A DNA stretch of 26,889 nucleotides, taken from IMG/VR virus record IMGVR_UViG_2537562020_000004; one strand, given 5' to 3'. The position numbers were made by a program, and so were the translations under genes. The stretch is from a virus. Taxonomy: Duplodnaviria; Heunggongvirae; Uroviricota; Caudoviricetes. The notes under the pieces are model-generated. The model worked only from the letters and a program-made list of their open reading frames with translations, was not told the origin of the DNA and did no database searches. This document shows positions 2,095-23,480 of the stretch, in pieces (position 1 is the first letter of the stretch; each line of letters starts with the position of its first letter).

Positions 2095-2546
2095 AACACC
2101 AGCAAACAGATAAAAAAGGGCCAGCCAATTGGCCAGCCCTTCTTAACAGGATGTCGCTTAAGCGAAATCTTAGTTAAGACGCTCCCAATAAAACCACATA
2201 AAAAACATATAATTATAATAAAAACAATTAGTTAATTTAATTTTTAATGCAGTGAATTGCAATATTCTGCAACCTCCGCCGCCACTTTGCCGCCACTTAA
2301 AGCTTTATACCACACAGACTTTAGTATACCCGAGTGAAACGCTAACACATGAGGTAGTTGGAAAATTTCCGTATATGTTGTAATATTGATACGCATTATA
2401 TGATTTTTACCTGATATAATGTAATTATTAGCTTCAAAATTATTTTTGCACGAATCAGGTATTACCAAGTAGTTGTCAGTTTTTAAAAACCCAACATCCT
2501 AAAATTAGCATTGTTTTTTAACCACAAAACATCCACGGAGAAGAAC

Positions 2547-3356
2547 GTGTCAAAAAAGGATACAATCCAGATTATCGATATCAGGATGCAGAGACCAATC
2601 ATAGCAAGAATAGAAGAAGAAAATTTAAATTTGACATTGCAAATGTCAGATAAAGCCACATTATCTGGTGCGACAGTTAGTTTTTTCACCCCAAATAACG
2701 TTTCTATATTCTTATCCTCAGCAAAAAAAGAGCTCTCAAAATCCAATTCTATATATAAAAGTCTTTTTGGAAAAATACACAAAACCAAACATAAAAACTT
2801 TAAAATTTCCGACAAAGACCTGCCGAGACTCTATAATTACTTTGAATCAATTCAGACGGCCATTATTTCTATGTATACTGCAATTGAGTCTTTTGCAAAT
2901 ATATGCATACCACATGATTATGTTTATGAAAAAAACAATGCCAAGGGAATCAAAGAATCCTATAGCAAAGAGCTAATTGAGCGATATATACCAACAAGTG
3001 AAAAAATAGATAAAATCCTACCGTCTATTTTAAATTGTGATTCGCCTAAAGGTTCAAAACTATGGCAAGATTTTAAAAGCCTTGAGTCACTTAGAAATGA
3101 CATAATTCACCCCAAGACAACAAAGAAAAACACAGAAACAAAAGAAGACTCATCTTTTTTATGCATTTTACTATCAGATGACTTTATAAAAAAAGTTTCC
3201 TGTGGATTTGATTTGGTATCTTATTTTTGCAAACAAGACACTACTCATAGTCTTTTCCCAATGGGTTTCGGTGAAATTGAACTTAAACCTGTCCCAATTA
3301 AAGCCGGTGACTTTGAAAAAGTTGATGATCATGATGAAATAGAATTACCATCATAA
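2547..3356 (+). CDS. AT-rich hypothetical protein (~270 aa) with a HEPN-like R-x4-H motif; prophage-border cargo gene
   Basis: Long ORF with strongly AT-biased codon usage unlike its neighbours; GTG start 2547 preceded by GGAG (2537-2540); motif SLRNDIIH at nt 3093-3110; followed by a hairpin. No family recognised. Confidence 0.6.
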   Translation: MSKKDTIQIIDIRMQRPIIARIEEENLNLTLQMSDKATLSGATVSFFTPNNVSIFLSSAKKELSKSNSIYKSLFGKIHKTKHKNFKISDKDLPRLYNYFESIQTAIISMYTAIESFANICIPHDYVYEKNNAKGIKESYSKELIERYIPTSEKIDKILPSILNCDSPKGSKLWQDFKSLESLRNDIIHPKTTKKNTETKEDSSFLCILLSDDFIKKVSCGFDLVSYFCKQDTTHSLFPMGFGEIELKPVPIKAGDFEKVDDHDEIELPS

Positions 3357-4535: not shown

Positions 4536-4874
4536 TTATTCCCAAAGTGCTGTTGCAGCATCCATTACAGGATCCAAAGGAATTTTTACGCCTGCATACT
4601 CCGGGCTATCTTTCCAAACAGTATCAATATTGCTCCCCTCAAGCTTTCCAGACTTTACTCCATCAATCGCAAAACCATTTAATGGGTATCGGTCATCTGT
4701 TGCTTTGTCGTACACAAAGGCATATTTACCGTTGACACAAGACACCGTAGCTTTTTCAAAAGTTAACGGCCAATCCTCACCAAACTTAGCGCCATCTAAA
4801 TCCTGTGTTTTTTCAGCGGCTGAGGCTCCAAAAGAAAGGGTAAGAAGCAGAGCTAAAAAGAGTTTACATTTCAT
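4536..4874 (-). CDS. Small secreted protein (112 aa) with N-terminal signal peptide; cargo gene between cI and int
   Basis: Start MKCKLFLALLLTLSFGASA-AEK (signal peptidase I-type site), RBS AAGGGA upstream; tightly packed between cI stop (4883) and int start (4513) on the same strand. Confidence 0.6.
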   Translation of the reverse strand: MKCKLFLALLLTLSFGASAAEKTQDLDGAKFGEDWPLTFEKATVSCVNGKYAFVYDKATDDRYPLNGFAIDGVKSGKLEGSNIDTVWKDSPEYAGVKIPLDPVMDAATALWE

Positions 4875-4882
4875 AATGTCCC

Positions 4883-5743
4883 TTACACGTGTTTTTCCAA
4901 TGTGAAAACTACAGCCCCGGCAGGAGTAATGTCTGTAATGTTGCATTCAAACTCAGCAGACTTATTTGACAACCTGACTTTTCCACCGGGCAAGCGAATT
5001 ACATCAAAAACATCAAGAGCGCCGTCGATATCAATTAACCAGCGACCATTACTTATATTCGAAGCAGAACAGTCGACAAGCCAAGAGGCAGCTACACCGT
5101 CAACAAAAATCAATTCCCCTGAGTTAGAAGGAATCATTGAGGGGTCAGGATGCCACGTTCCTGCATCCTTAAGCTCACCAGATTCAAGACGAGATTTTTT
5201 AATAGAAAAACCAGATGTGACATCTTCCCTGTTAGCTCGCATTTGCCCCTTGCCTGTTGCTAACCATTCCAGTGACGTATCGGTATCAAGAGCGCATGTA
5301 ACAACAACATCACCAGGGAAAAAATCTCGCCTTACCCATGTGCTAATTGTGCCAGAGGAAATGCCGAGCAAATCACCGAGCTCCTTTTGCATGGTAAAGC
5401 CATACGCATCAAGAATCCTACGCAAAACGGTTTTACCACCATTCGTCATAATCTCGTCATAAAGCTCTTTGCCTTTTAACTTGCAACTGGCTCGCTCGTG
5501 ATTTGCATTTGCAAGTTCTCCATTTACAAGCCAATTGATATCAGCTCCCGTGTCAAGACAACACCTAACTATGACATTGCCAGGTATTGCATCACGCTGA
5601 ACCCAGCCGCTAACGCTGTGTTTAGCGATACCTAGCAGGTCAGCCAAATCCTTTTGCATCTTGACCCCATAGGCTGACATTAAGCGTTCCAATACGCCGT
5701 TCGTTGCACTAACACGCCACTGAACATCAAGCTCAGAACTCAT
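4883..5743 (-). CDS. cI: Phage 186-type CI immunity repressor (286 aa) with tandemly duplicated N-terminal DNA-binding domain
   Basis: Two consecutive ~60 aa segments (AYGVKMQKDLADLLGIAKHSVSGWVQRDAIPGNVIVRCCLDTGADINWL and AYGFTMQKELGDLLGISSGTISTWVRRDFFPGDVVVTCALDTDTSLEWL) resembling the 186 CI N-terminal domain, plus a CI-like C-terminal domain; divergent from apl/cII. Confidence 0.85.
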   Translation of the reverse strand: MSSELDVQWRVSATNGVLERLMSAYGVKMQKDLADLLGIAKHSVSGWVQRDAIPGNVIVRCCLDTGADINWLVNGELANANHERASCKLKGKELYDEIMTNGGKTVLRRILDAYGFTMQKELGDLLGISSGTISTWVRRDFFPGDVVVTCALDTDTSLEWLATGKGQMRANREDVTSGFSIKKSRLESGELKDAGTWHPDPSMIPSNSGELIFVDGVAASWLVDCSASNISNGRWLIDIDGALDVFDVIRLPGGKVRLSNKSAEFECNITDITPAGAVVFTLEKHV

Positions 5744-6986: not shown

Positions 6987-7288
6987 AAGCGGGTGAACGT
7001 CTGGCCGGTCTCAATCATGTTGCCGAATTGCGCGCGAGATATTGGGGCGATAGCTGGAAAGAGGTTGAACGTTTTGTCGATGATATGCGCGATAAACGTG
7101 ACCCACAATTTGAAGAAAATAATCGGGCGCTGGCCGCTATTTTCTTTCTGGCAAAAATACCGGCGGCTCGTCATGAACTCGAATTAAGTGAGCTGACTAC
7201 TGACGAGAAAAAGGCGCTTATTACAGCGATGAATCATTTTCGTGCAGTAGTGAGCTTATTTCCCAAACGGCTAACCATGCCGAATTAA
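6950..7288 (+). CDS. Hypothetical early protein (112 aa)
   Basis: ORF with G-rich RBS before ATG 6950; overlaps the previous ORF by 37 nt in another frame. Confidence 0.5.
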   Translation: MAIEAVSATVPLKAGERLAGLNHVAELRARYWGDSWKEVERFVDDMRDKRDPQFEENNRALAAIFFLAKIPAARHELELSELTTDEKKALITAMNHFRAVVSLFPKRLTMPN

Positions 7289-7355
7289 TCCAAACAGAAA
7301 TTTAATGGCGTAAACCCGCCGGGCATCTTATTGCCCGAAATCAGGAGAGTTAATT

Positions 7356-7583
7356 ATGCGTAATACCGAAATCCGTAGTTTTAACACTGATAGCGATGCG
7401 CTGGCCGTATTGCTGACCGATGCAAAAAAAGAAGAGCGTAAAGACCGCGCGCTCGCTGTTTCCATCCGCCTTGAGGCGCTGGCTATCCATATTACCAGAG
7501 AGGGAATGAGCGGCACCGAAGCTGCCGAACTGCTGCGCCGTGAAGCAACCCGCTTTGAGAATGAATCACAGGAGCTGCACTAA
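7356..7583 (+). CDS. Hypothetical early protein (75 aa)
   Basis: Strong RBS AGGAGA 6 nt upstream of ATG; stop overlaps the next start. Confidence 0.55.
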   Translation: MRNTEIRSFNTDSDALAVLLTDAKKEERKDRALAVSIRLEALAIHITREGMSGTEAAELLRREATRFENESQELH

Positions 7584-7804
7584 TGGCCGACGCAATGGAT
7601 TTAGCACAACTGCGCGAGCAGGAAGACCGCGAACGCCACATCAGCAACGCACGCACCCGTATCGCTGCACCTTCCCGTTTTCTTTGCGAGGAATGTGACG
7701 CACCAATCCCGGAAGCTCGCCGCATTGCGATTCCGGGCGTGGCTTTTTGCGTAACCTGCCAGCAAATCGCAGAGCTAAAAAACAAACACTATCGGGGGGT
7801 ATAA
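7583..7804 (+). CDS. TraR/DksA-family C4 zinc-finger protein (73 aa)
   Basis: CEEC...CVTC motif (two CxxC pairs); small ORF immediately upstream of replication gene A, as in P2/186-family phages. Confidence 0.7.
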   Translation: MADAMDLAQLREQEDRERHISNARTRIAAPSRFLCEECDAPIPEARRIAIPGVAFCVTCQQIAELKNKHYRGV

Positions 7805-7805
7805 A

Positions 7806-10028
7806 TTGGCTGTTCAATTCGCTTATCCGTGGAACGTCCCACGGTCGGCAATCTCCAGCCCATACCTTACTTATGAGCAACAGCATCGCCGCGACCGTAT
7901 GTTCGCGGCTTTGCTGCATGCAAAAAAGGGGCTTTCTCTCCAGCCCGACTGCGTGCGGTTAGATGTTTATCGCACTGCTGCGGTGCTGGAACAAAATCAG
8001 GGTAGTCAACGAGCCAATGCATTTTTAATCAGCTTCTGCAAAAAGGCATTGCCGCGTCTTGAACTGGTCGCAAAAAAATCCGAATGCGCTGGTATCAACA
8101 GCAAGGTATCAACCGCTGTTTTTGGAAGTCATTTTGATACTCAGCAAATGCAATATCTGTCGTCACGCATGGTTAATATGGTCGCCCGATATAACCGTCT
8201 CCCGGACATGTCGCGCGCTGATGTTGACCTGTTGGCCGCTGATATTGCTAATTTCATTCGTGGTGAACTTGCCAACATTAATGACCACGGATTCGGCGAG
8301 CTTAAAACGCTGTACACCTGGTATATTCGTGCTGGCTTTATTTCCCTCCAATTCAACGTTATCCCACCACATTGGGAGCGGGTTGAAAAAAAATATGTCG
8401 GTGCGGATGAAATCGCACCGGCTATCGCCAAAATGTTTAACGATGGGGGGTGGCGCGGTCGTTTGCGCCGTGTAGCAGCTACGTGGCGCGAACACCTGCA
8501 AATTGCAGTCGGCAACGTCAGTAAGAAAAAAAACACTTACGCGAGTAAAAACTGCGTGACTGACTGGCGTGAACAAAAGCGCCGCACTCGTGAATTTCTC
8601 AAAGGTCTGGATCTCGAAGACGAAGACGGCAACCGTATCAGCCTAATTGAAAAATATGATGGCTCAGTTGCTAACCCTGCGATTCGCCGCTGTGAGCTCA
8701 TGACCCGCATTCGTGGGTTTGAAAACATCTGTAATGAGCTCGGTTATGTCGGTGAGTTTTACACTCTAACCGCGCCGTCAAAATATCACGCCACGACTAA
8801 AGCCGGTTACCGTAACAGCAAATGGAGCGGTGCCAGCCCGGCTGACACGCAAAACTATCTAACCGGTATCTGGGCGCGTATCCGTGCCAAACTACATCGG
8901 GAAGATGTCCGTATTTTCGGTATTCGTGTCGCCGAGCCCCATCACGACGGCACTCCACACTGGCACATGCTGATGTTCATGCTGCCGGAAGATGTTGAAT
9001 ATGTTCGCTCCATCGTCCGTAAATACGCATGGAAAGAAGACCGCCACGAACTGAAAAGCGATAAATCCCAAAAAGCACGTTTCCACGCGGAGTCCATTGA
9101 CCCGGAGAAAGGCAGCGCAACCGGCTATGTTGCTAAATACATTTCAAAAAATATCGACGGTTATGCTCTCGATGGTGAAACCGATGATGAAAGCGGTGAG
9201 CTGCTGAAAGAGACAGCCCCCGCCGTTTCAGCATGGGCTGCGCGCTGGCACATCCGTCAGTTTCAGTTTATTGGTGGTGCGCCGGTGACGGTTTACCGTG
9301 AGTTGCGTCGCCTCGCTGATACCGAAACCGCGCACGGTCTGAGCGTTGAGTTTGCCGCCGTCCATGATGCCGCCGACGCTGGTGACTGGGCTGGTTATGT
9401 TAATGCTCAGGGTGGGCCGTTTGTCCGTCGCGATGATTTACAGGTGCGCACACTGTATGAACCGCGTACCGAGCTTAATCAGTACGGTGAGGAAACGGTA
9501 TGTATTAAGGGGGTCTACGATTCCTCCATAGGTGCAGGAAGCCCGATTTTAACCCGGCTCACTCAGTGGAAGATTGTTCCGAAGCGTGCTGTTGATTTGG
9601 CCGTTGACCTTCAGGACGGCAAAGCCGTCCCTCGGAGTTCTGTCAATAACTGTACGGGAAGCGAAAGCGATCCACCGATACTGGATTTAACAAAACCACT
9701 GAGTCGGCGTGAAAGACGAGAATTGACCAACCGACTCAGGAAGCAAAAGCCAGCAGCACGGCGAAAATTCATCCACGGAACGGATGAGCAAAACGCAGCT
9801 ATAGCTAAAACTATCGATGAGATACATCTGACAACCGGCATTAATATCAGCCGGGGCGAAGCCCTGCACCTGATGGCCGGTGGTAAAAGTTGTTTTGATG
9901 GTAAATGGCTACGCGGAACGGCCAAAGGAGAAATATTTTCCGCAGCACCATCGCATGAGGCTAAAGCTCGGAAAATCCTTAATCGTGTTGCGGCGATGGC
10001 TGAAGCATCAAAACCAATACATGAGTAA
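7806..10028 (+). CDS. A: Replication initiation protein A (rolling-circle endonuclease), 740 aa; start codon uncertain (TTG at 7806 or ATG at 7899)
   Basis: Conserved block YTLTAPSKYH...RVAEPHHDGTPHWHMLMF...GYVAKYISKNIDGYALDG characteristic of P2 gpA / 186 A. Confidence 0.9.
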   Translation: MAVQFAYPWNVPRSAISSPYLTYEQQHRRDRMFAALLHAKKGLSLQPDCVRLDVYRTAAVLEQNQGSQRANAFLISFCKKALPRLELVAKKSECAGINSKVSTAVFGSHFDTQQMQYLSSRMVNMVARYNRLPDMSRADVDLLAADIANFIRGELANINDHGFGELKTLYTWYIRAGFISLQFNVIPPHWERVEKKYVGADEIAPAIAKMFNDGGWRGRLRRVAATWREHLQIAVGNVSKKKNTYASKNCVTDWREQKRRTREFLKGLDLEDEDGNRISLIEKYDGSVANPAIRRCELMTRIRGFENICNELGYVGEFYTLTAPSKYHATTKAGYRNSKWSGASPADTQNYLTGIWARIRAKLHREDVRIFGIRVAEPHHDGTPHWHMLMFMLPEDVEYVRSIVRKYAWKEDRHELKSDKSQKARFHAESIDPEKGSATGYVAKYISKNIDGYALDGETDDESGELLKETAPAVSAWAARWHIRQFQFIGGAPVTVYRELRRLADTETAHGLSVEFAAVHDAADAGDWAGYVNAQGGPFVRRDDLQVRTLYEPRTELNQYGEETVCIKGVYDSSIGAGSPILTRLTQWKIVPKRAVDLAVDLQDGKAVPRSSVNNCTGSESDPPILDLTKPLSRRERRELTNRLRKQKPAARRKFIHGTDEQNAAIAKTIDEIHLTTGINISRGEALHLMAGGKSCFDGKWLRGTAKGEIFSAAPSHEAKARKILNRVAAMAEASKPIHE

Positions 10029-11858: not shown

Positions 11859-12863
11859 CTAATTTACATGTATGTAGAGTTCACCGTCGCCAGACCAATC
11901 GGGACACTCTAAAACAAGCCCAAACTGCTTGAATATTTCATCAATGATTATTGTTATCTCCCGAAAATCACCAAAACCTGTAATGTGCTGGTCATTAAAC
12001 TTCCCATAAAGATTCTGAAAAGCAATGCCTAATTCTGATAATTGATATCTTATCTTTGAGTTGGATAGTGTAAGGGATAGCTTTGGATCGTATTCTTTAA
12101 TATTGATGTTTAGAGAATGGACATAACCCATCGCATAAGCATAAGAGTTGATGATTAGCCTGATACGTTTTTTTACTTCAAGATACATGTCATTCAGAGA
12201 AATATTACCGTACTTATAACCCCAGATGAGTTTTTCAATCTCGTCAGATACTTCATTTACAACAGTGTCAAGATTCTCTAAAAATAAATCGACAGTTTCT
12301 TGAGGGGCAGACCCCGAAGACATGTAATTAGCGAGATATTCAGACCATGCACGCGTGGCTGAGATAAGAAGCGCGCTACCATACTCGTTGACTGTAAAGT
12401 TTTGGGCTAAGCATGTTAGTAAGTTTTTTTCATGTACGTGCACTAATTCATGGTGAATGCGATGGATGACTGCGAGGTATCCTTCTTCTTTCAGTTTTAA
12501 GAAGCTACCATCATTGAAAAGCTCAACAAAAAAATCAATCGATAGCACAAGGGTATATTCTTCATATAGCCCATCATTGCCAATTTTTGTTACTAACTGC
12601 CCGACGGCTGCGCCCTGTTTGCTATTGGTAAATGAACTAGGGGATTTGTGTTGGTAAGAGGATGTTACCTTTTGAAGAGCTTCACTGAAGTTATAGGAAA
12701 CAATCACGCATTTTAATTTGGAGATATCAAGATTGAGATTCTTTGTTAAAGCTCGGATAGCTTCTAGTGTGAAATTACCGATATTATTTGCTTCTTGCTC
12801 AGTAGCGAAACCTTCGAGGGTTATTTTAAAATCAGTTTCCAAAATATTAATCTCCGCGCCCAT
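11859..12863 (-). CDS. AT-rich hypothetical protein (334 aa) with HExxH motif (HELVH); cargo gene between portal gene and cos
   Basis: Long ORF with AT-biased composition contrasting with adjacent phage genes; HRIHHELVHVHE at aa 135-146 (nt ~12438-12452); co-directional with Q/P. Confidence 0.7.
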   Translation of the reverse strand: MGAEINILETDFKITLEGFATEQEANNIGNFTLEAIRALTKNLNLDISKLKCVIVSYNFSEALQKVTSSYQHKSPSSFTNSKQGAAVGQLVTKIGNDGLYEEYTLVLSIDFFVELFNDGSFLKLKEEGYLAVIHRIHHELVHVHEKNLLTCLAQNFTVNEYGSALLISATRAWSEYLANYMSSGSAPQETVDLFLENLDTVVNEVSDEIEKLIWGYKYGNISLNDMYLEVKKRIRLIINSYAYAMGYVHSLNINIKEYDPKLSLTLSNSKIRYQLSELGIAFQNLYGKFNDQHITGFGDFREITIIIDEIFKQFGLVLECPDWSGDGELYIHVN

Positions 12864-20820: not shown

Positions 20821-21250
20821 CGCTGTACCCCAGCTCAGAAACAACCCCGATATGCTGCGTCTTTTCGCCGACAACGGGCATATCGATTCCCGACTGGCGA
20901 GCTCGCTGTCGTTTGAAAAGGTGTACGTGCTTAACATGGTGGTGACCGACTTTACCGGCGACCTCGATTTGATATTCGTGCCAGTGCAGGCGTGGCTGCG
21001 TGAACATCAGCCGGACATTATGACCACCGACGACGGGCGGGAAAAAGGATTCACCTGGATTATTGATATCAATAACGACGATTCGCTCGATATCAGTATC
21101 AGCCTGAGGCTCACCGAGCGCACGCTCGTCAAAGAGGTCGACGGCGCGCTGCATGTCAGCTATGCCCCAGAGCCGCCGCTGCCTGAGCCGGTGACGCGCC
21201 CGGTCGAGCTGTACGTTAATGGCGAACTGGTGAGTAAGTGGGATGAGTGA
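20774..21250 (+). CDS. R: Tail completion protein R (P2 gpR-like)
   Basis: C-terminal region ...PVTRPVELYVNGELVSKWDE and size match P2 gpR. Confidence 0.85.
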   Translation: MNSMQKHKSLRKALINAVPQLRNNPDMLRLFADNGHIDSRLASSLSFEKVYVLNMVVTDFTGDLDLIFVPVQAWLREHQPDIMTTDDGREKGFTWIIDINNDDSLDISISLRLTERTLVKEVDGALHVSYAPEPPLPEPVTRPVELYVNGELVSKWDE

Positions 21251-21698
21251 GTTAACCGCGCTACAGGAACGTCTTGCCGGTCTGATTGCCAGCCTGTCAC
21301 CGGCGGCGCGTCGGCAAATGGCGGCTGACATTGCAAAAAAACTGCGCGCCAGTCAGCAACAGCGCATTAAGCGCCAGCAGGCACCTGACGGCACCCCGTA
21401 TGCCGCCAGAAAGCGCCAGCCGGTGCGGAGCAAGAGAGGCCGTATCAGGCGCGAAATGTTCGCCAAACTGCGCAGCACTAACCGCTTTATGAAAGCCAAA
21501 GGCAGCGACAGTGCGGCAGTGGGGGAGTTTACCGACAAGGTACAGCGCATGGCGCGGGTGCATCAGTACGGCCTCAAAGACCGGCCAAACCGCAACAGCC
21601 GGGATGTGCAGTACGAGGCACGCCCGTTGTTCGGTTTCACCCGGGACGATGAACTGCTTGTTGAGAAGCTAATAATCGGAGCTATTAGAAATGGTTAA
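21243..21698 (+). CDS. S: Tail completion protein S (P2 gpS-like), 151 aa
   Basis: ATG overlaps R stop; size and position match P2 gpS. Confidence 0.85.
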   Translation: MSELTALQERLAGLIASLSPAARRQMAADIAKKLRASQQQRIKRQQAPDGTPYAARKRQPVRSKRGRIRREMFAKLRSTNRFMKAKGSDSAAVGEFTDKVQRMARVHQYGLKDRPNRNSRDVQYEARPLFGFTRDDELLVEKLIIGAIRNG

Positions 21699-21749
21699 TT
21701 AACAAAAGCATGCTAACTCTTGACAATTTGACAACTAGAGTGCACCCTA

Positions 21750-21777
21750 ACGCCAGTCAATAGAGTGCGACTGGCGT
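21750..21777. repeat. Inverted repeat ACGCCAGTC-N10-GACTGGCGT between S and the convergent cargo gene
   Basis: Perfect 9 bp stem; no clear U-tract, so terminator function is uncertain. Confidence 0.3.
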
Positions 21778-21815
21778 CAAGGAAGATTTTAATCTTTCTT
21801 TAGTGGTTCGATTCC

Positions 21816-22691
21816 CTAGCCTCGTAAATATCGTTTAGTAAATTTCGTGTTTGGTCTGGATGATAGGATTTGTCTTTCTATTTCACTATCACAGTCTATA
21901 TAGTCTAGTGTATTAGCTTCTATAAGTTTGTTCACGTCAATATTTTTTGCATCGATTATGTTGGCATTTCTAAGGTTTGCATTGGTGTATTCCACTTTAT
22001 CCAAATCACACTCTCTGAGTACGCAACTTTTCATTTCCGCATTGGAAAAATCCCCACCATATAAATAGCAGCCTTCAAAAATAACACCGTTTAACTTTGA
22101 ATCCTGAGCTTTAATATTTTTTATTTTACACTTTATAAATTTTACGTTTTTCATTTTGCTCTTGCTAATATTTAATGCCTGGATTGTACATCCAGTGAAA
22201 GAACAGTCTCTTATGTTAGATTTTTCCATATTTAACCCAGATAGTTCTGAGGTTTTAAAGTGTAAGTATTTAATGGTAAAAAGGTCACCCAACTCCATTC
22301 TGGGTATGTCTATATTGAAGACACCTTTATTGTTGAGCTGTCTTATTATTTTTATTTTTTGTATTTTCAAATCAACATTAACGTGCTTAGCTAAGTTTCC
22401 CAAATCCTCAAGAAGTTCATTAATCGTTTCTTTGTTTTGTCTTCTGTATTCAAAGTAATAAAGGATGACACCTAATACAAAAAAATCCAAAATGGATGAA
22501 TTTGCATTTATTAGGAACCCAGACAGGAATGAATCATTGTAATTACCATAGTGTATAGAGGCAAGTGTTACGCCAAATGCATATAAAATAAAAATAATAA
22601 ACACGTGCTTCATTTTGCATAAGGATTGTATTATTGGTTTTATGGCATCAATTTTGTTCATTGCTGCAGCAGCGAAAGATTTAAAAGTCAT
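21816..22691 (-). CDS. AT-rich membrane protein (291 aa) with two N-terminal TM helices and C-terminal pentapeptide repeats; cargo gene between S and V
   Basis: AT-biased ORF antiparallel to the tail genes; hydrophobic segments HVFIIFILYAFGVTLASI and ILDFFVLGVILYYF; ~14 consecutive 5-residue repeats with central hydrophobic residue (SKMKN VKFIK CKIKN ... ANLRN ANIID). Confidence 0.7.
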   Translation of the reverse strand: MTFKSFAAAAMNKIDAIKPIIQSLCKMKHVFIIFILYAFGVTLASIHYGNYNDSFLSGFLINANSSILDFFVLGVILYYFEYRRQNKETINELLEDLGNLAKHVNVDLKIQKIKIIRQLNNKGVFNIDIPRMELGDLFTIKYLHFKTSELSGLNMEKSNIRDCSFTGCTIQALNISKSKMKNVKFIKCKIKNIKAQDSKLNGVIFEGCYLYGGDFSNAEMKSCVLRECDLDKVEYTNANLRNANIIDAKNIDVNKLIEANTLDYIDCDSEIERQILSSRPNTKFTKRYLRG

Positions 22692-22844
22692 TCTATTTTT
22701 AATGCATTCAGATTAAATGGGATTGATGATTTTTACGTGCCCAATGATGCGTGTCAATCAGATCTTTGAAAGTGTCTTGCTGTGTGAGCCCCTTTCCAAT
22801 CCCGAAGTTTTGTCTGCAATGAAAAGAAGCGGCATGCTTACATA

Positions 22845-23480
22845 ATGAATACATCAAATATCATTCAAGAGCTTGCCCGTGCAATACGCAACCTCATTCG
22901 CACAGGGGTGGTGACTGAGGTCGATACCGTGCAGGGGCTGTGCCGTGTACAAAGCGGCGGGATCCAGACTACATGGCTGAACTGGCTGACCACCCGAGCC
23001 GGTCGTTCGCGGACGTGGTGGGCTCCCTCGGTCGGTGAGCAGGTTCTGCTGCTGGCAATCGGTGGCGAGCTTGATACCGCTTTCGTGCTGCCGGGTATTT
23101 TCTCCGACGATAACCCCGCCCCGTCTGCCTCGGCGGATGCGTGGCATGTGGCTTTCCCTGATGGTGCGGTCATTGAGTACGAGCCCGAGGCCGGCGCGCT
23201 GACGGCCAGCGGTATCAAAACTGCCGACGTGACGGCATCGGAGTCCATCACTGCAACCGTACCGCTGGTACTGGTGAAAGCCTCGACCAGTATCACCCTC
23301 GACACCCCGGAGGTGATTTGCACCAATAAGCTGACGACAGCGACGCTTGAGGTACAAAAAGGCGGCAAGATGAGCGGCAATATCGAACATACCGGCGGGT
23401 CACTGTCGTCTAATGGCAAGGTACTCCACACCCATAAACACCCAGGCGACAGCGGCGGGCAAACGGGGGCACCGTTATGA
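22845..23480 (+). CDS. V: Baseplate spike/assembly protein V (P2 gpV-like), 211 aa
   Basis: Size and position match P2 gpV; C-terminal HTHKHPGDSGGQTGAP is the conserved spike apex motif. Confidence 0.9.
   Translation: MNTSNIIQELARAIRNLIRTGVVTEVDTVQGLCRVQSGGIQTTWLNWLTTRAGRSRTWWAPSVGEQVLLLAIGGELDTAFVLPGIFSDDNPAPSASADAWHVAFPDGAVIEYEPEAGALTASGIKTADVTASESITATVPLVLVKASTSITLDTPEVICTNKLTTATLEVQKGGKMSGNIEHTGGSLSSNGKVLHTHKHPGDSGGQTGAPL

Follow-up and report, generated by a model that had tools for sequence, protein, structure and literature searches.

The closest described counterpart of the locus analysed here is the anti-phage system Hailong, whose channel protein HalA is reportedly the subject of Tan et al. 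2025, Nature, and of PDB entry 9nyi. Our locus lies in IMG/VR record IMGVR_UViG_2537562020_000004, the whole 26,889-nucleotide (nt) stretch of which is called the window below. It consists of a gene for a membrane-anchored pentapeptide-repeat protein of 291 amino acids (aa) and a gene for a small tRNA-like RNA beside its stop codon. The protein gene is a foreign, AT-rich cargo gene that stands at a variable site, on the strand opposite to the tail genes on both sides of it. Our leading interpretation, which is tentative, is that the insert is a two-gene cargo module in which a pore-forming effector would be guarded or regulated by the tRNA-like RNA, and which would serve in phage defence or as a toxin-antitoxin system.

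According to two secondary sources on Hailong, HalA combines pentapeptide repeats with a K-channel domain and forms a tetrameric channel, this channel is held closed by oligodeoxyadenylate from HalB, and HalA depolarises the cell once a phage nuclease removes the oligodeoxyadenylate (PMC13434031, PMC13586616). HalA is the nearest characterised analogue of the window protein. The latter is not a HalA and belongs to the same design class, in which a pentapeptide domain is joined to a small pore. HalA has a K+ (IRK-type) channel pore and an enzyme-made oligo-dA ligand, whereas the window protein has no recognisable K-channel P-loop and its candidate ligand is the encoded tRNA-like RNA. Moreover, no HalB nucleotidyltransferase was found in the insert or among the annotated genes of the prophage, and the insert, like all loci of relatives inspected, carries one protein gene only.

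The pentapeptide-repeat membrane protein

RefSeq labels the protein a 'pentapeptide repeat-containing protein'. As shown in Table 1, two hydrophobic helices near the N-terminus are followed by a basic linker and the repeats. The coding sequence (CDS) starts with an ATG; since Met27 (22613) is invariant in the relatives, Met27 may be the true start instead. The loop between the two helices is six residues long. Because basic residues flank both hydrophobic helices, the repeat domain and both ends of the hairpin should be cytoplasmic. The cytosolic part has a net charge of +7 and an isoelectric point (pI) of 9.0, with a net charge of +4 for the beta-helix, and it was basic in all 16 relatives checked (pI 8.3-9.7).

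The C-terminal domain matched the pentapeptide repeat families PF13599/PF00805, which form a quadrilateral beta-helix, above the Pfam gathering score, and a clean period-5 hydrophobic signal extended across residues 133-252, which corresponds to 24 units. The AlphaFold2 monomer had a mean predicted local distance difference test (pLDDT) score of 79.7, with values >90 in the repeat region. A first-pass annotation of this DNA had described two transmembrane (TM) helices and about 14 pentapeptide repeats. The architecture was confirmed, the repeat periodicity was borne out by the profile match and the period-5 signal, and the number of repeats had to be corrected. A Foldseek search against the PDB returned mostly generic pentapeptide proteins, and the template modelling scores (TM-scores) were low because the N-terminus is floppy. 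Part of the linker (residues 81-132) falls within a weak match to the HalA model.

The best conserved part of the family is a motif in helix 2, N62-A-N-S-S-I-L-D69-F...G74...YYFE81, where the invariant residues N62, A63, N64, S65, S66, I67, D69, F70, G74 and YYFE81 cluster. This conservation fits a helix that would line a polar pore in an oligomer.

A link to ion channels was provided by the relative P0092, of which the representative has 371 aa. The N-terminal portion of P0092 is a genuine K+ channel pore; it has TLGYGD as its filter (Ion_trans_2, E-value 3.9e-12) and matches the structures of LmK, NaK and KirBac. The C-terminal 230 residues are the linker and pentapeptide module of the family (31% identity over 256 aa, E 2e-32). 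In a profile comparison, the homology began halfway along the inner helix and continued to the C-terminus, and the C-terminal half of the window helix 2 aligned with the pore-lining inner helix of P0092. By this alignment, helix 2 of the window protein is therefore placed like the gate-forming inner helix of a channel, joined directly to the cytosolic module. The Ion_trans_2 match was confined to P0092 among the family members. A BLASTP alignment (HYGNY vs GYGDF) had raised the idea that helix 1 and the loop are a degenerate K-channel P-loop; this idea was dropped as unproven, because the profile homology starts only in the middle of helix 2 and Ion_trans_2 is found in P0092 alone. The gene, its fold, its cargo status, its conservation and the homology of its cytosolic module to one attached to a channel are established here.

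The tRNA-like RNA gene

The RNA gene abutting the stop codon was absent from the first-pass annotation. Its transcription is convergent with that of the CDS, and in the window the 3' strand of the RNA extends over the stop codon and the two codons before it. The window RNA is laid out as an acceptor-like stem (P1), a mini D-like stem-loop (GAC-UGGC-GUC), a variable hairpin (P2), a T-arm (GG-UUCGAUU-CC) and the closing strand P1'. The RNAs of the family are 55-70 nt long and begin about 10 nt past the promoter, and their order is P1 of 4-5 bp, a D-like segment, hairpin P2, a short joiner, the T-arm and the 3' strand of P1. The D-like segment is conserved and could fold into a stem of 3 bp closed by a tetraloop that contains GG (GAU-GYGG-GUC; in the P2 group, GAC-UGGY-GUC). 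The sequence of hairpin P2 is free and its pairing is always kept, with loops of 3-5 nt, and the T-arm is canonical (GGGG-UUCRAUU-CCCC). Of the 27 unique elements, 24 have a sigma-70 promoter of the form TTGA[CT]N-17 nt-NANNNT, whose distance from the RNA hardly varies, and the other three have TATAAT boxes.

The structure was evaluated on a trimmed alignment of 12 distant sequences with a hand-set structure. Pairing was possible in 90.4% of the cells, compared to 72.9 ± 2.1% in shuffles and 35-51% in slid controls. Changes on both sides were found in 14 of the 19 pairs, and none of 500 shuffles scored as high. This covariation supports four helices in the predicted structure. P1 occurs as GGCCG, AUCAG, GCCAU, GUCAG and GAGGU, each with a matching partner, and the T-stem changes from GGGG/CCCC into AAGG/CCUU, GAGG/CCUC and AGAG/CUCU. 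Furthermore, the RNA strand paired better than its complement (90.4% vs 81.7%), with 22 G.U cells. When 17 RNA sequences were aligned by MAFFT and folded by RNAalifold, only the T-arm and the D-like stem were recovered, because the variable lengths of P2 and J3 misaligned both P1 and P2.

Two covariance models were built. R1, made from the 12 distant sequences, found nine members outside its seed with E-values from 1e-7 to 1e-16; each was the sole strong match of its locus and abutted the protein gene. R1 had no match at the corresponding junctions of phages P2 and 186, and on the window copy it reached the T-arm and nothing beyond. R2 was made from eight P2-group sequences, with the window and its nearest relative left out. 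It matched the window at the interval given for the RNA in Table 1 with 36.3 bits (E 2e-8), and this was the only significant match in the window.

The RNA was found 3' of the protein gene in about 33 of 36 loci with downstream DNA in the protein-first searches, and this association holds in phages and chromosomes alike, for proteins with identities as low as about 30%. In the opposite direction, 2.9 million viral contigs were scanned for the RNA pattern; this gave 12 matches, with the protein adjacent in 8 of the 10 that could be tested. Two high-GC viral contigs (L055, 13541-13591; L060, 1232-1282) match the RNA pattern without a family protein adjacent; these matches are probably due to chance or tRNA-derived. 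In some relatives the element is encoded in the last codons of the protein, which then ends in ...GIEPP or ...ESNPTQ, and the T-arm core lies between 27 nt inside the gene and 40 nt beyond the stop codon. The C-terminus of P0092, ...WGIEPPT, likewise runs into a T-arm, which implies that a tRNA-like RNA is predicted 3' of the P0092 gene as well. The structure of the RNA, its strand, its promoter and its linkage to the protein are established by these comparisons, and the RNA is probably an expressed, functional partner of the protein.

The element shares with tRNAs, the tRNA-like domain of tmRNA and the Y-RNA-like YrlA a T-arm of the form GGUUCRAUUCC, an acceptor-like stem and a GG-containing D-like loop. 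It differs from tRNAs in its length of about 60 nt, its acceptor of 4-5 bp instead of 7 bp and its lack of a 7-nt anticodon loop. With these differences, and without a program call, identity as a tRNA was rejected. ARAGORN made no tRNA call in the window or in six further loci, and Rfam 15 gave no match in the same loci at E-values up to 1 or 5. The element is absent from the RefSeq annotation, and in our literature searches no tRNA-like RNA paired with such a protein was found described. An integrative attachment (att) site was rejected as well, since a search of the window that allowed up to 3 mismatches returned a single copy of the element, and no direct repeat flanks it. An integron attC site was rejected for want of a border repeat.

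Several variants of the RNA were also observed. In the Aliivibrio and Shewanella group (L022, L023, L036/L037), the acceptor-like 3' strand is followed by N-CCA (GCC-A-CCA, GCC-T-CCA), which resembles the end of a real tRNA and was not seen in the other RNA groups. In L025 (8832-8893) the D-like GGG is changed into CAG together with a C to A change in the T-loop (UUAAAUU); this single case may be a co-change of a tertiary contact between the D-loop and the T-loop. A 14-nt unit (GGGAATCGAGGTTA) is present in tandem in L007 (6020-6062) and L016 (4919-4965), with two extra copies before the true T-arm; the repeat lies at the RNA 3' end beside the protein stop codon and resembles slippage at a convergent junction. 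In the window, a 14-nt inverted repeat (CCCTAACGCCAGTC / GACTGGCGTCAAGG) at 21745-21782 covers the -10 region of the RNA promoter and the 5' part of the RNA. A similar upstream pairing with the conserved J1 segment is found in L003, L010 and L029. The inverted repeat may be an alternative structure or a terminator of the protein mRNA.

Proposed function and alternative explanations

In the proposed mechanism, the two N-terminal helices would probably oligomerise into an ion-conducting pore in the inner membrane, and the basic pentapeptide beta-helix in the cytoplasm would be a regulatory or ligand-binding domain. The tRNA-like RNA, presumably transcribed constitutively as the partner of the protein, would keep the pore inactive in the lysogen, through contact with the basic cytosolic domain or through an effect on the convergent mRNA; a role as inhibitory ligand is considered likelier than that of an antisense antitoxin. 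An infecting phage could remove this RNA brake by RNA decay, by shutting off transcription or through a phage RNA-processing enzyme. The pore would then open, the membrane would depolarise and the infected cell would no longer support phage growth. For the prophage, the module would thereby be a means of abortive infection or of addiction. The pore is suggested by the polar conservation in helix 2, the channel fusion in P0092, the analogy with HalA and the basic cytosolic part. For oligomerisation, ion conduction, the RNA-protein contact, the trigger and the defence phenotype, we reason by analogy with Hailong and RNA-antitoxin systems.

A number of observations weigh against this mechanism. 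In the protein, the TM part of the AlphaFold2 model, that is, the hairpin which the first-pass annotation had expected beside the well-modelled beta-helix, has low confidence (pLDDT 46-65). No channel domain was detectable, the loop between the helices being only about 6 residues long, and PADLOC 2.0 gave no match to the protein. The HalA model (NF051894) is its top NCBIfam match at 42 bits, compared to a cutoff of 250; no family member reaches this cutoff, the best E-value among 45 members being 1.7e-16. HalA is also not the closest pentapeptide structure to the window protein, and the order of domains appears reversed, with the pentapeptide near the N-terminus in HalA and C-terminal to the TM helices in the window protein. 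On the side of the RNA, the element is absent at the three most divergent protein relatives (L031, L033 and L049). When the window copy is folded by itself its structure is weak (z -0.75), and hairpin P2 alone is stable; P1 and the T-stem each need one bulged base for five pairs, and the -10 box is poor. The window copy may thus be less active than others. The same traits of fold, bulges and -10 box recur in L003, the nearest relative at 66% protein identity, whose hairpin P2 differs from that of the window by compensated changes, because of which this RNA lineage seems, from the comparison, to be still under selection.

A bolder version of the proposed mechanism, which we regard as rather doubtful, is that the module represents an undescribed two-component class. 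A tRNA-shaped RNA would here be the direct gating ligand of a pentapeptide channel, and phage attack on this tRNA-like RNA, or its depletion, would cause depolarisation. Such a class would be the RNA-guarded counterpart of the DNA-guarded Hailong, present in P2-like phages of Enterobacterales and in islands of marine and soil Gammaproteobacteria.

Another explanation is a toxin-antitoxin or addiction module without a defence role, in which a membrane toxin is controlled by a type I-style antisense RNA at the 3' end of its mRNA and which stabilises the prophage or island. We consider this unlikely. Like type I systems with a convergent small RNA and type III systems (ToxIN), the locus combines a small, apparently constitutive RNA gene with a potentially toxic protein on a mobile element. 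The convergent layout with the overlap of the stop codon in the window and the conserved promoter also agree with it, and convergent, 3'-overlapping RNA antitoxins of the txpA/RatA type are known for membrane toxins of Bacillus prophages. However, the overlap with the CDS is not conserved, and the offset between RNA and stop codon (-27 to +40 nt) weakens a pure cis-antisense model. The tRNA-like fold, the T-loop and the J1 motif would be superfluous for simple antisense pairing, and 291 aa is far above the size of type I toxins. No complementarity in trans to the 5' region of the mRNA was supported (z -2.7 to +0.9), and on these values a trans-antisense regulator of that region was rejected. 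The arrangement of type III systems was not found either, since the RNA is a single tRNA-like unit, downstream and on the opposite strand, with no tandem repeats upstream.

Somewhat less probable again is superinfection exclusion at the inner membrane, in which a Sie/Imm-like protein blocks the entry of phage DNA and the RNA is unrelated or merely a regulatory neighbour. A prophage-encoded membrane protein with its own promoter on the lysogen-side strand would suit such a role. But the family is also found in non-prophage chromosomal islands of marine bacteria, the K+ channel-bearing relative points to ion conduction, and the tight linkage of the RNA would be left unexplained.

It is improbable that the tRNA-like element is not an RNA gene at all, and is instead a terminator that travels with the gene, or what is left of an attachment site derived from a tRNA. 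Many islands integrate at tRNA 3' ends, one distant copy lies in an island beside tRNA genes and an integrase, and the weak fold of the window copy would also agree with a remnant. Against this, no second copy of the 3' part was found at the other border, and both strands of the acceptor-like stem are present with compensatory changes. Moreover, the promoter is conserved at a fixed distance, the G.U pairs favour one strand, and the element is kept at the S/V junction, a site without an integrase.

The membrane-tethered DNA mimic that the first-pass annotation had put forward, which would inhibit gyrase or phage DNA enzymes, is very improbable: the right-handed quadrilateral beta-helix is shared with Qnr, MfpA and AlbG, but DNA mimics are acidic and mimicry needs an acidic surface, these proteins are soluble, dimeric and topoisomerase-targeting whereas the window protein is membrane-anchored and basic like all relatives checked, its scores with the Qnr and MfpA NCBIfam models are only 28-38 bits against cutoffs of 240-500, conservation peaks in TM helix 2 and not on the faces of the beta-helix, and a relative is fused to a K+ channel.

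The insertion site, the family and its significance

The window is a complete 186-type (P2-like, Peduoviridae) prophage, integrated beside yfiN and yfiB of E. coli, and an identical copy is present in four complete E. coli genomes. The CDS lies between homologues of S/O (21243-21698, +) and V (22845-23480, +), and has a GC content of 31% (0.30-0.33 along the gene) compared to 58% in the flanks (0.57-0.61 in the tail genes on both sides). In the alignment with phage 186, the two sequences are 91% identical as far as 21652, close to where S/O ends, and again from 22863, six codons into V; 1,210 bp of the window replace 130 bp of phage 186. Phage 186 and about 30 related phages have a short S(O)/V junction without the CDS. 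With this distribution, the foreign GC content and the opposite strand, the gene is not a tail structural protein, and the AT-rich cargo gene at a variable site that had been proposed from the sequence is confirmed.

In the GenBank record of phage P2, the slot of the window gene is taken by Orf30 (-), with the O-operon terminator on one side and the pV activator site on the other, which agrees with the earlier mention of a nonessential P2 gene at this place. Orf30 has the slot, the opposite strand, the AT-richness and the nonessential nature in common with the window cargo. It has no sequence similarity to the window protein and was therefore ruled out as a homologue; unlike the window, the junctions of P2 and 186 have no RNA element. 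The gene had also been thought to interrupt a co-linear operon. According to the P2 record, S closes the O operon and V opens the pV operon, and the cargo differs between phages, so the S/V site is an inter-operon gap that takes swapped cargo, not the interior of one operon.

Table 1. Positions of the features of the insert in the window
Feature	Position	Strand	Evidence
Two-TM pentapeptide-repeat protein, 291 aa; WP_001394648.1; PHROG 12514 (function not assigned)	21816..22691	-	Open reading frame (ORF), Pfam, RefSeq
Hydrophobic helix 1, residues 28-48	22548..22610	-	Kyte-Doolittle; AlphaFold2 helix 28-47
Helix 2, residues 55-80	22452..22529	-	Kyte-Doolittle; AlphaFold2 helix 53-87
Basic helical linker, residues 81-132 (helices 90-100, 106-121)	22296..22451	-	Model; common to all relatives
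Pentapeptide beta-helix, residues 133-252, about 24 units, net basic	21936..22295	-	Pfam, AlphaFold2, periodicity
tRNA-like small RNA gene, about 60 nt, convergent with CDS	21763..21823	+	Covariance model, comparison
RNA promoter: -35 TTGACA (21720-21725), 17 nt spacer, weak -10 CACCCT (21743-21748)	21720..21748	+	Consensus
Segment swapped relative to phage 186: S end, RNA gene, CDS, pV promoter region, first V codons	21653..22862	.	Alignment with 186
Sigma-70-like promoter of CDS: TTGACA-17-AAAAAT, 10/12 matches	22729..22757	-	Consensus match only

The close family comprises 27 clusters at 90% identity, all from Enterobacterales, and is equivalent to PHROG 12514. An exhaustive profile search added about 40 full-length relatives of 250-340 aa with the same layout; a first scan of the genome collection with alignment A3 had given 39 pattern matches and no confirmed relative. 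In P2-like phages of Escherichia, Enterobacter, Edwardsiella and Yersinia, homologues with 35-66% identity are likewise found at the S/V junction, on the opposite strand; the L017 homologue adjoins ogr/D instead of S/V. Two homologues lie outside P2 phages, and their neighbours are umuDC-like genes, an SRAP gene and an Abi_C gene. The distant relatives, each a lone gene, come from Shewanella, Marinomonas, Pseudomonas, Aliivibrio, Gilvimarinus and Bacteroidota. In the distant Gammaproteobacterial copies the GC content is 0.32-0.42 in the gene and 0.40-0.56 in the locus, and in the Bacteroidota copy it is close to that of the locus (0.47 vs 0.49). The neighbours of the distant copies are integrases, SRA-HNH / HNH (type IV) restriction genes, DUF4238 genes, transposases and toxin-antitoxin pairs, and one copy lies beside a CRISPR array. 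No second protein gene was consistently linked among the loci inspected. In E. coli the module is rare, with two variants in 18 of 5,426 complete genomes, one of them in 14 genomes, although the family is widespread across Gammaproteobacteria.

Two of these loci have further features. In L033 (about 8840-8950) the distant homologue without RNA is followed directly by CRISPR-like repeats (GTTCATCCCCACGGGCGTGGGGAAC). L020 is a P2-like phage with an extra 286-aa ORF (7007-7867, -) between the module and gene S, which has only a sub-threshold DUF6548 match and no PADLOC match.

Defence genes abound in the hotspots of P2-like phages (old, tin, fun/Z), one of which lies in the tail gene region (Rousset 2022; Moura de Sousa 2026). 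With the cargo spots of these phages and the integrases, type IV restriction genes, Abi_C gene and CRISPR array near the relatives, the defence or exclusion role suggested by the first-pass annotation is plausible. Other genes of the window were noted as well. A 281-aa hypothetical ORF (2511-3356, +), flanked by host yfiB and the integrase gene, sits in what is the att-int cargo slot of P2-like phages and has a weak PADLOC match to a DRT-associated HEPN model (E 1.3e-4) and no Pfam match. The main P2 defence hotspot, which separates the region of replication gene A from the portal gene Q, contains a 334-aa ORF (11859-12863, -) that has no Pfam or PADLOC match and may be another uncharacterised cargo gene. 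In addition, a gene for a DUF2511 protein (4536-4946, -) separates the integrase gene from that of the CI repressor.

A large part of the mobile stock of defence genes in E. coli is carried by P2-like prophages. The slot and the family described here are known only under the label 'pentapeptide repeat-containing protein', and the models of defence finders miss both. The RNA family is new to Rfam, ARAGORN and the RefSeq annotation, and its strong covariation merits a description of its own. Taken by itself, the protein would add one more member to a cargo family that is uncharacterised and Hailong-like in design; with the RNA partner included, the module would extend the nucleic-acid-guarded or RNA-antitoxin systems by a new variant, and possibly form a class of its own. 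If the proposed mechanism is true, the pentapeptide domains would have a second role besides DNA mimicry, in a compact two-part switch of about 1.1 kb, and the principle of Hailong, a channel shut by a self-made nucleic acid that phages destroy, would extend from enzyme-made DNA to an encoded tRNA-like RNA.

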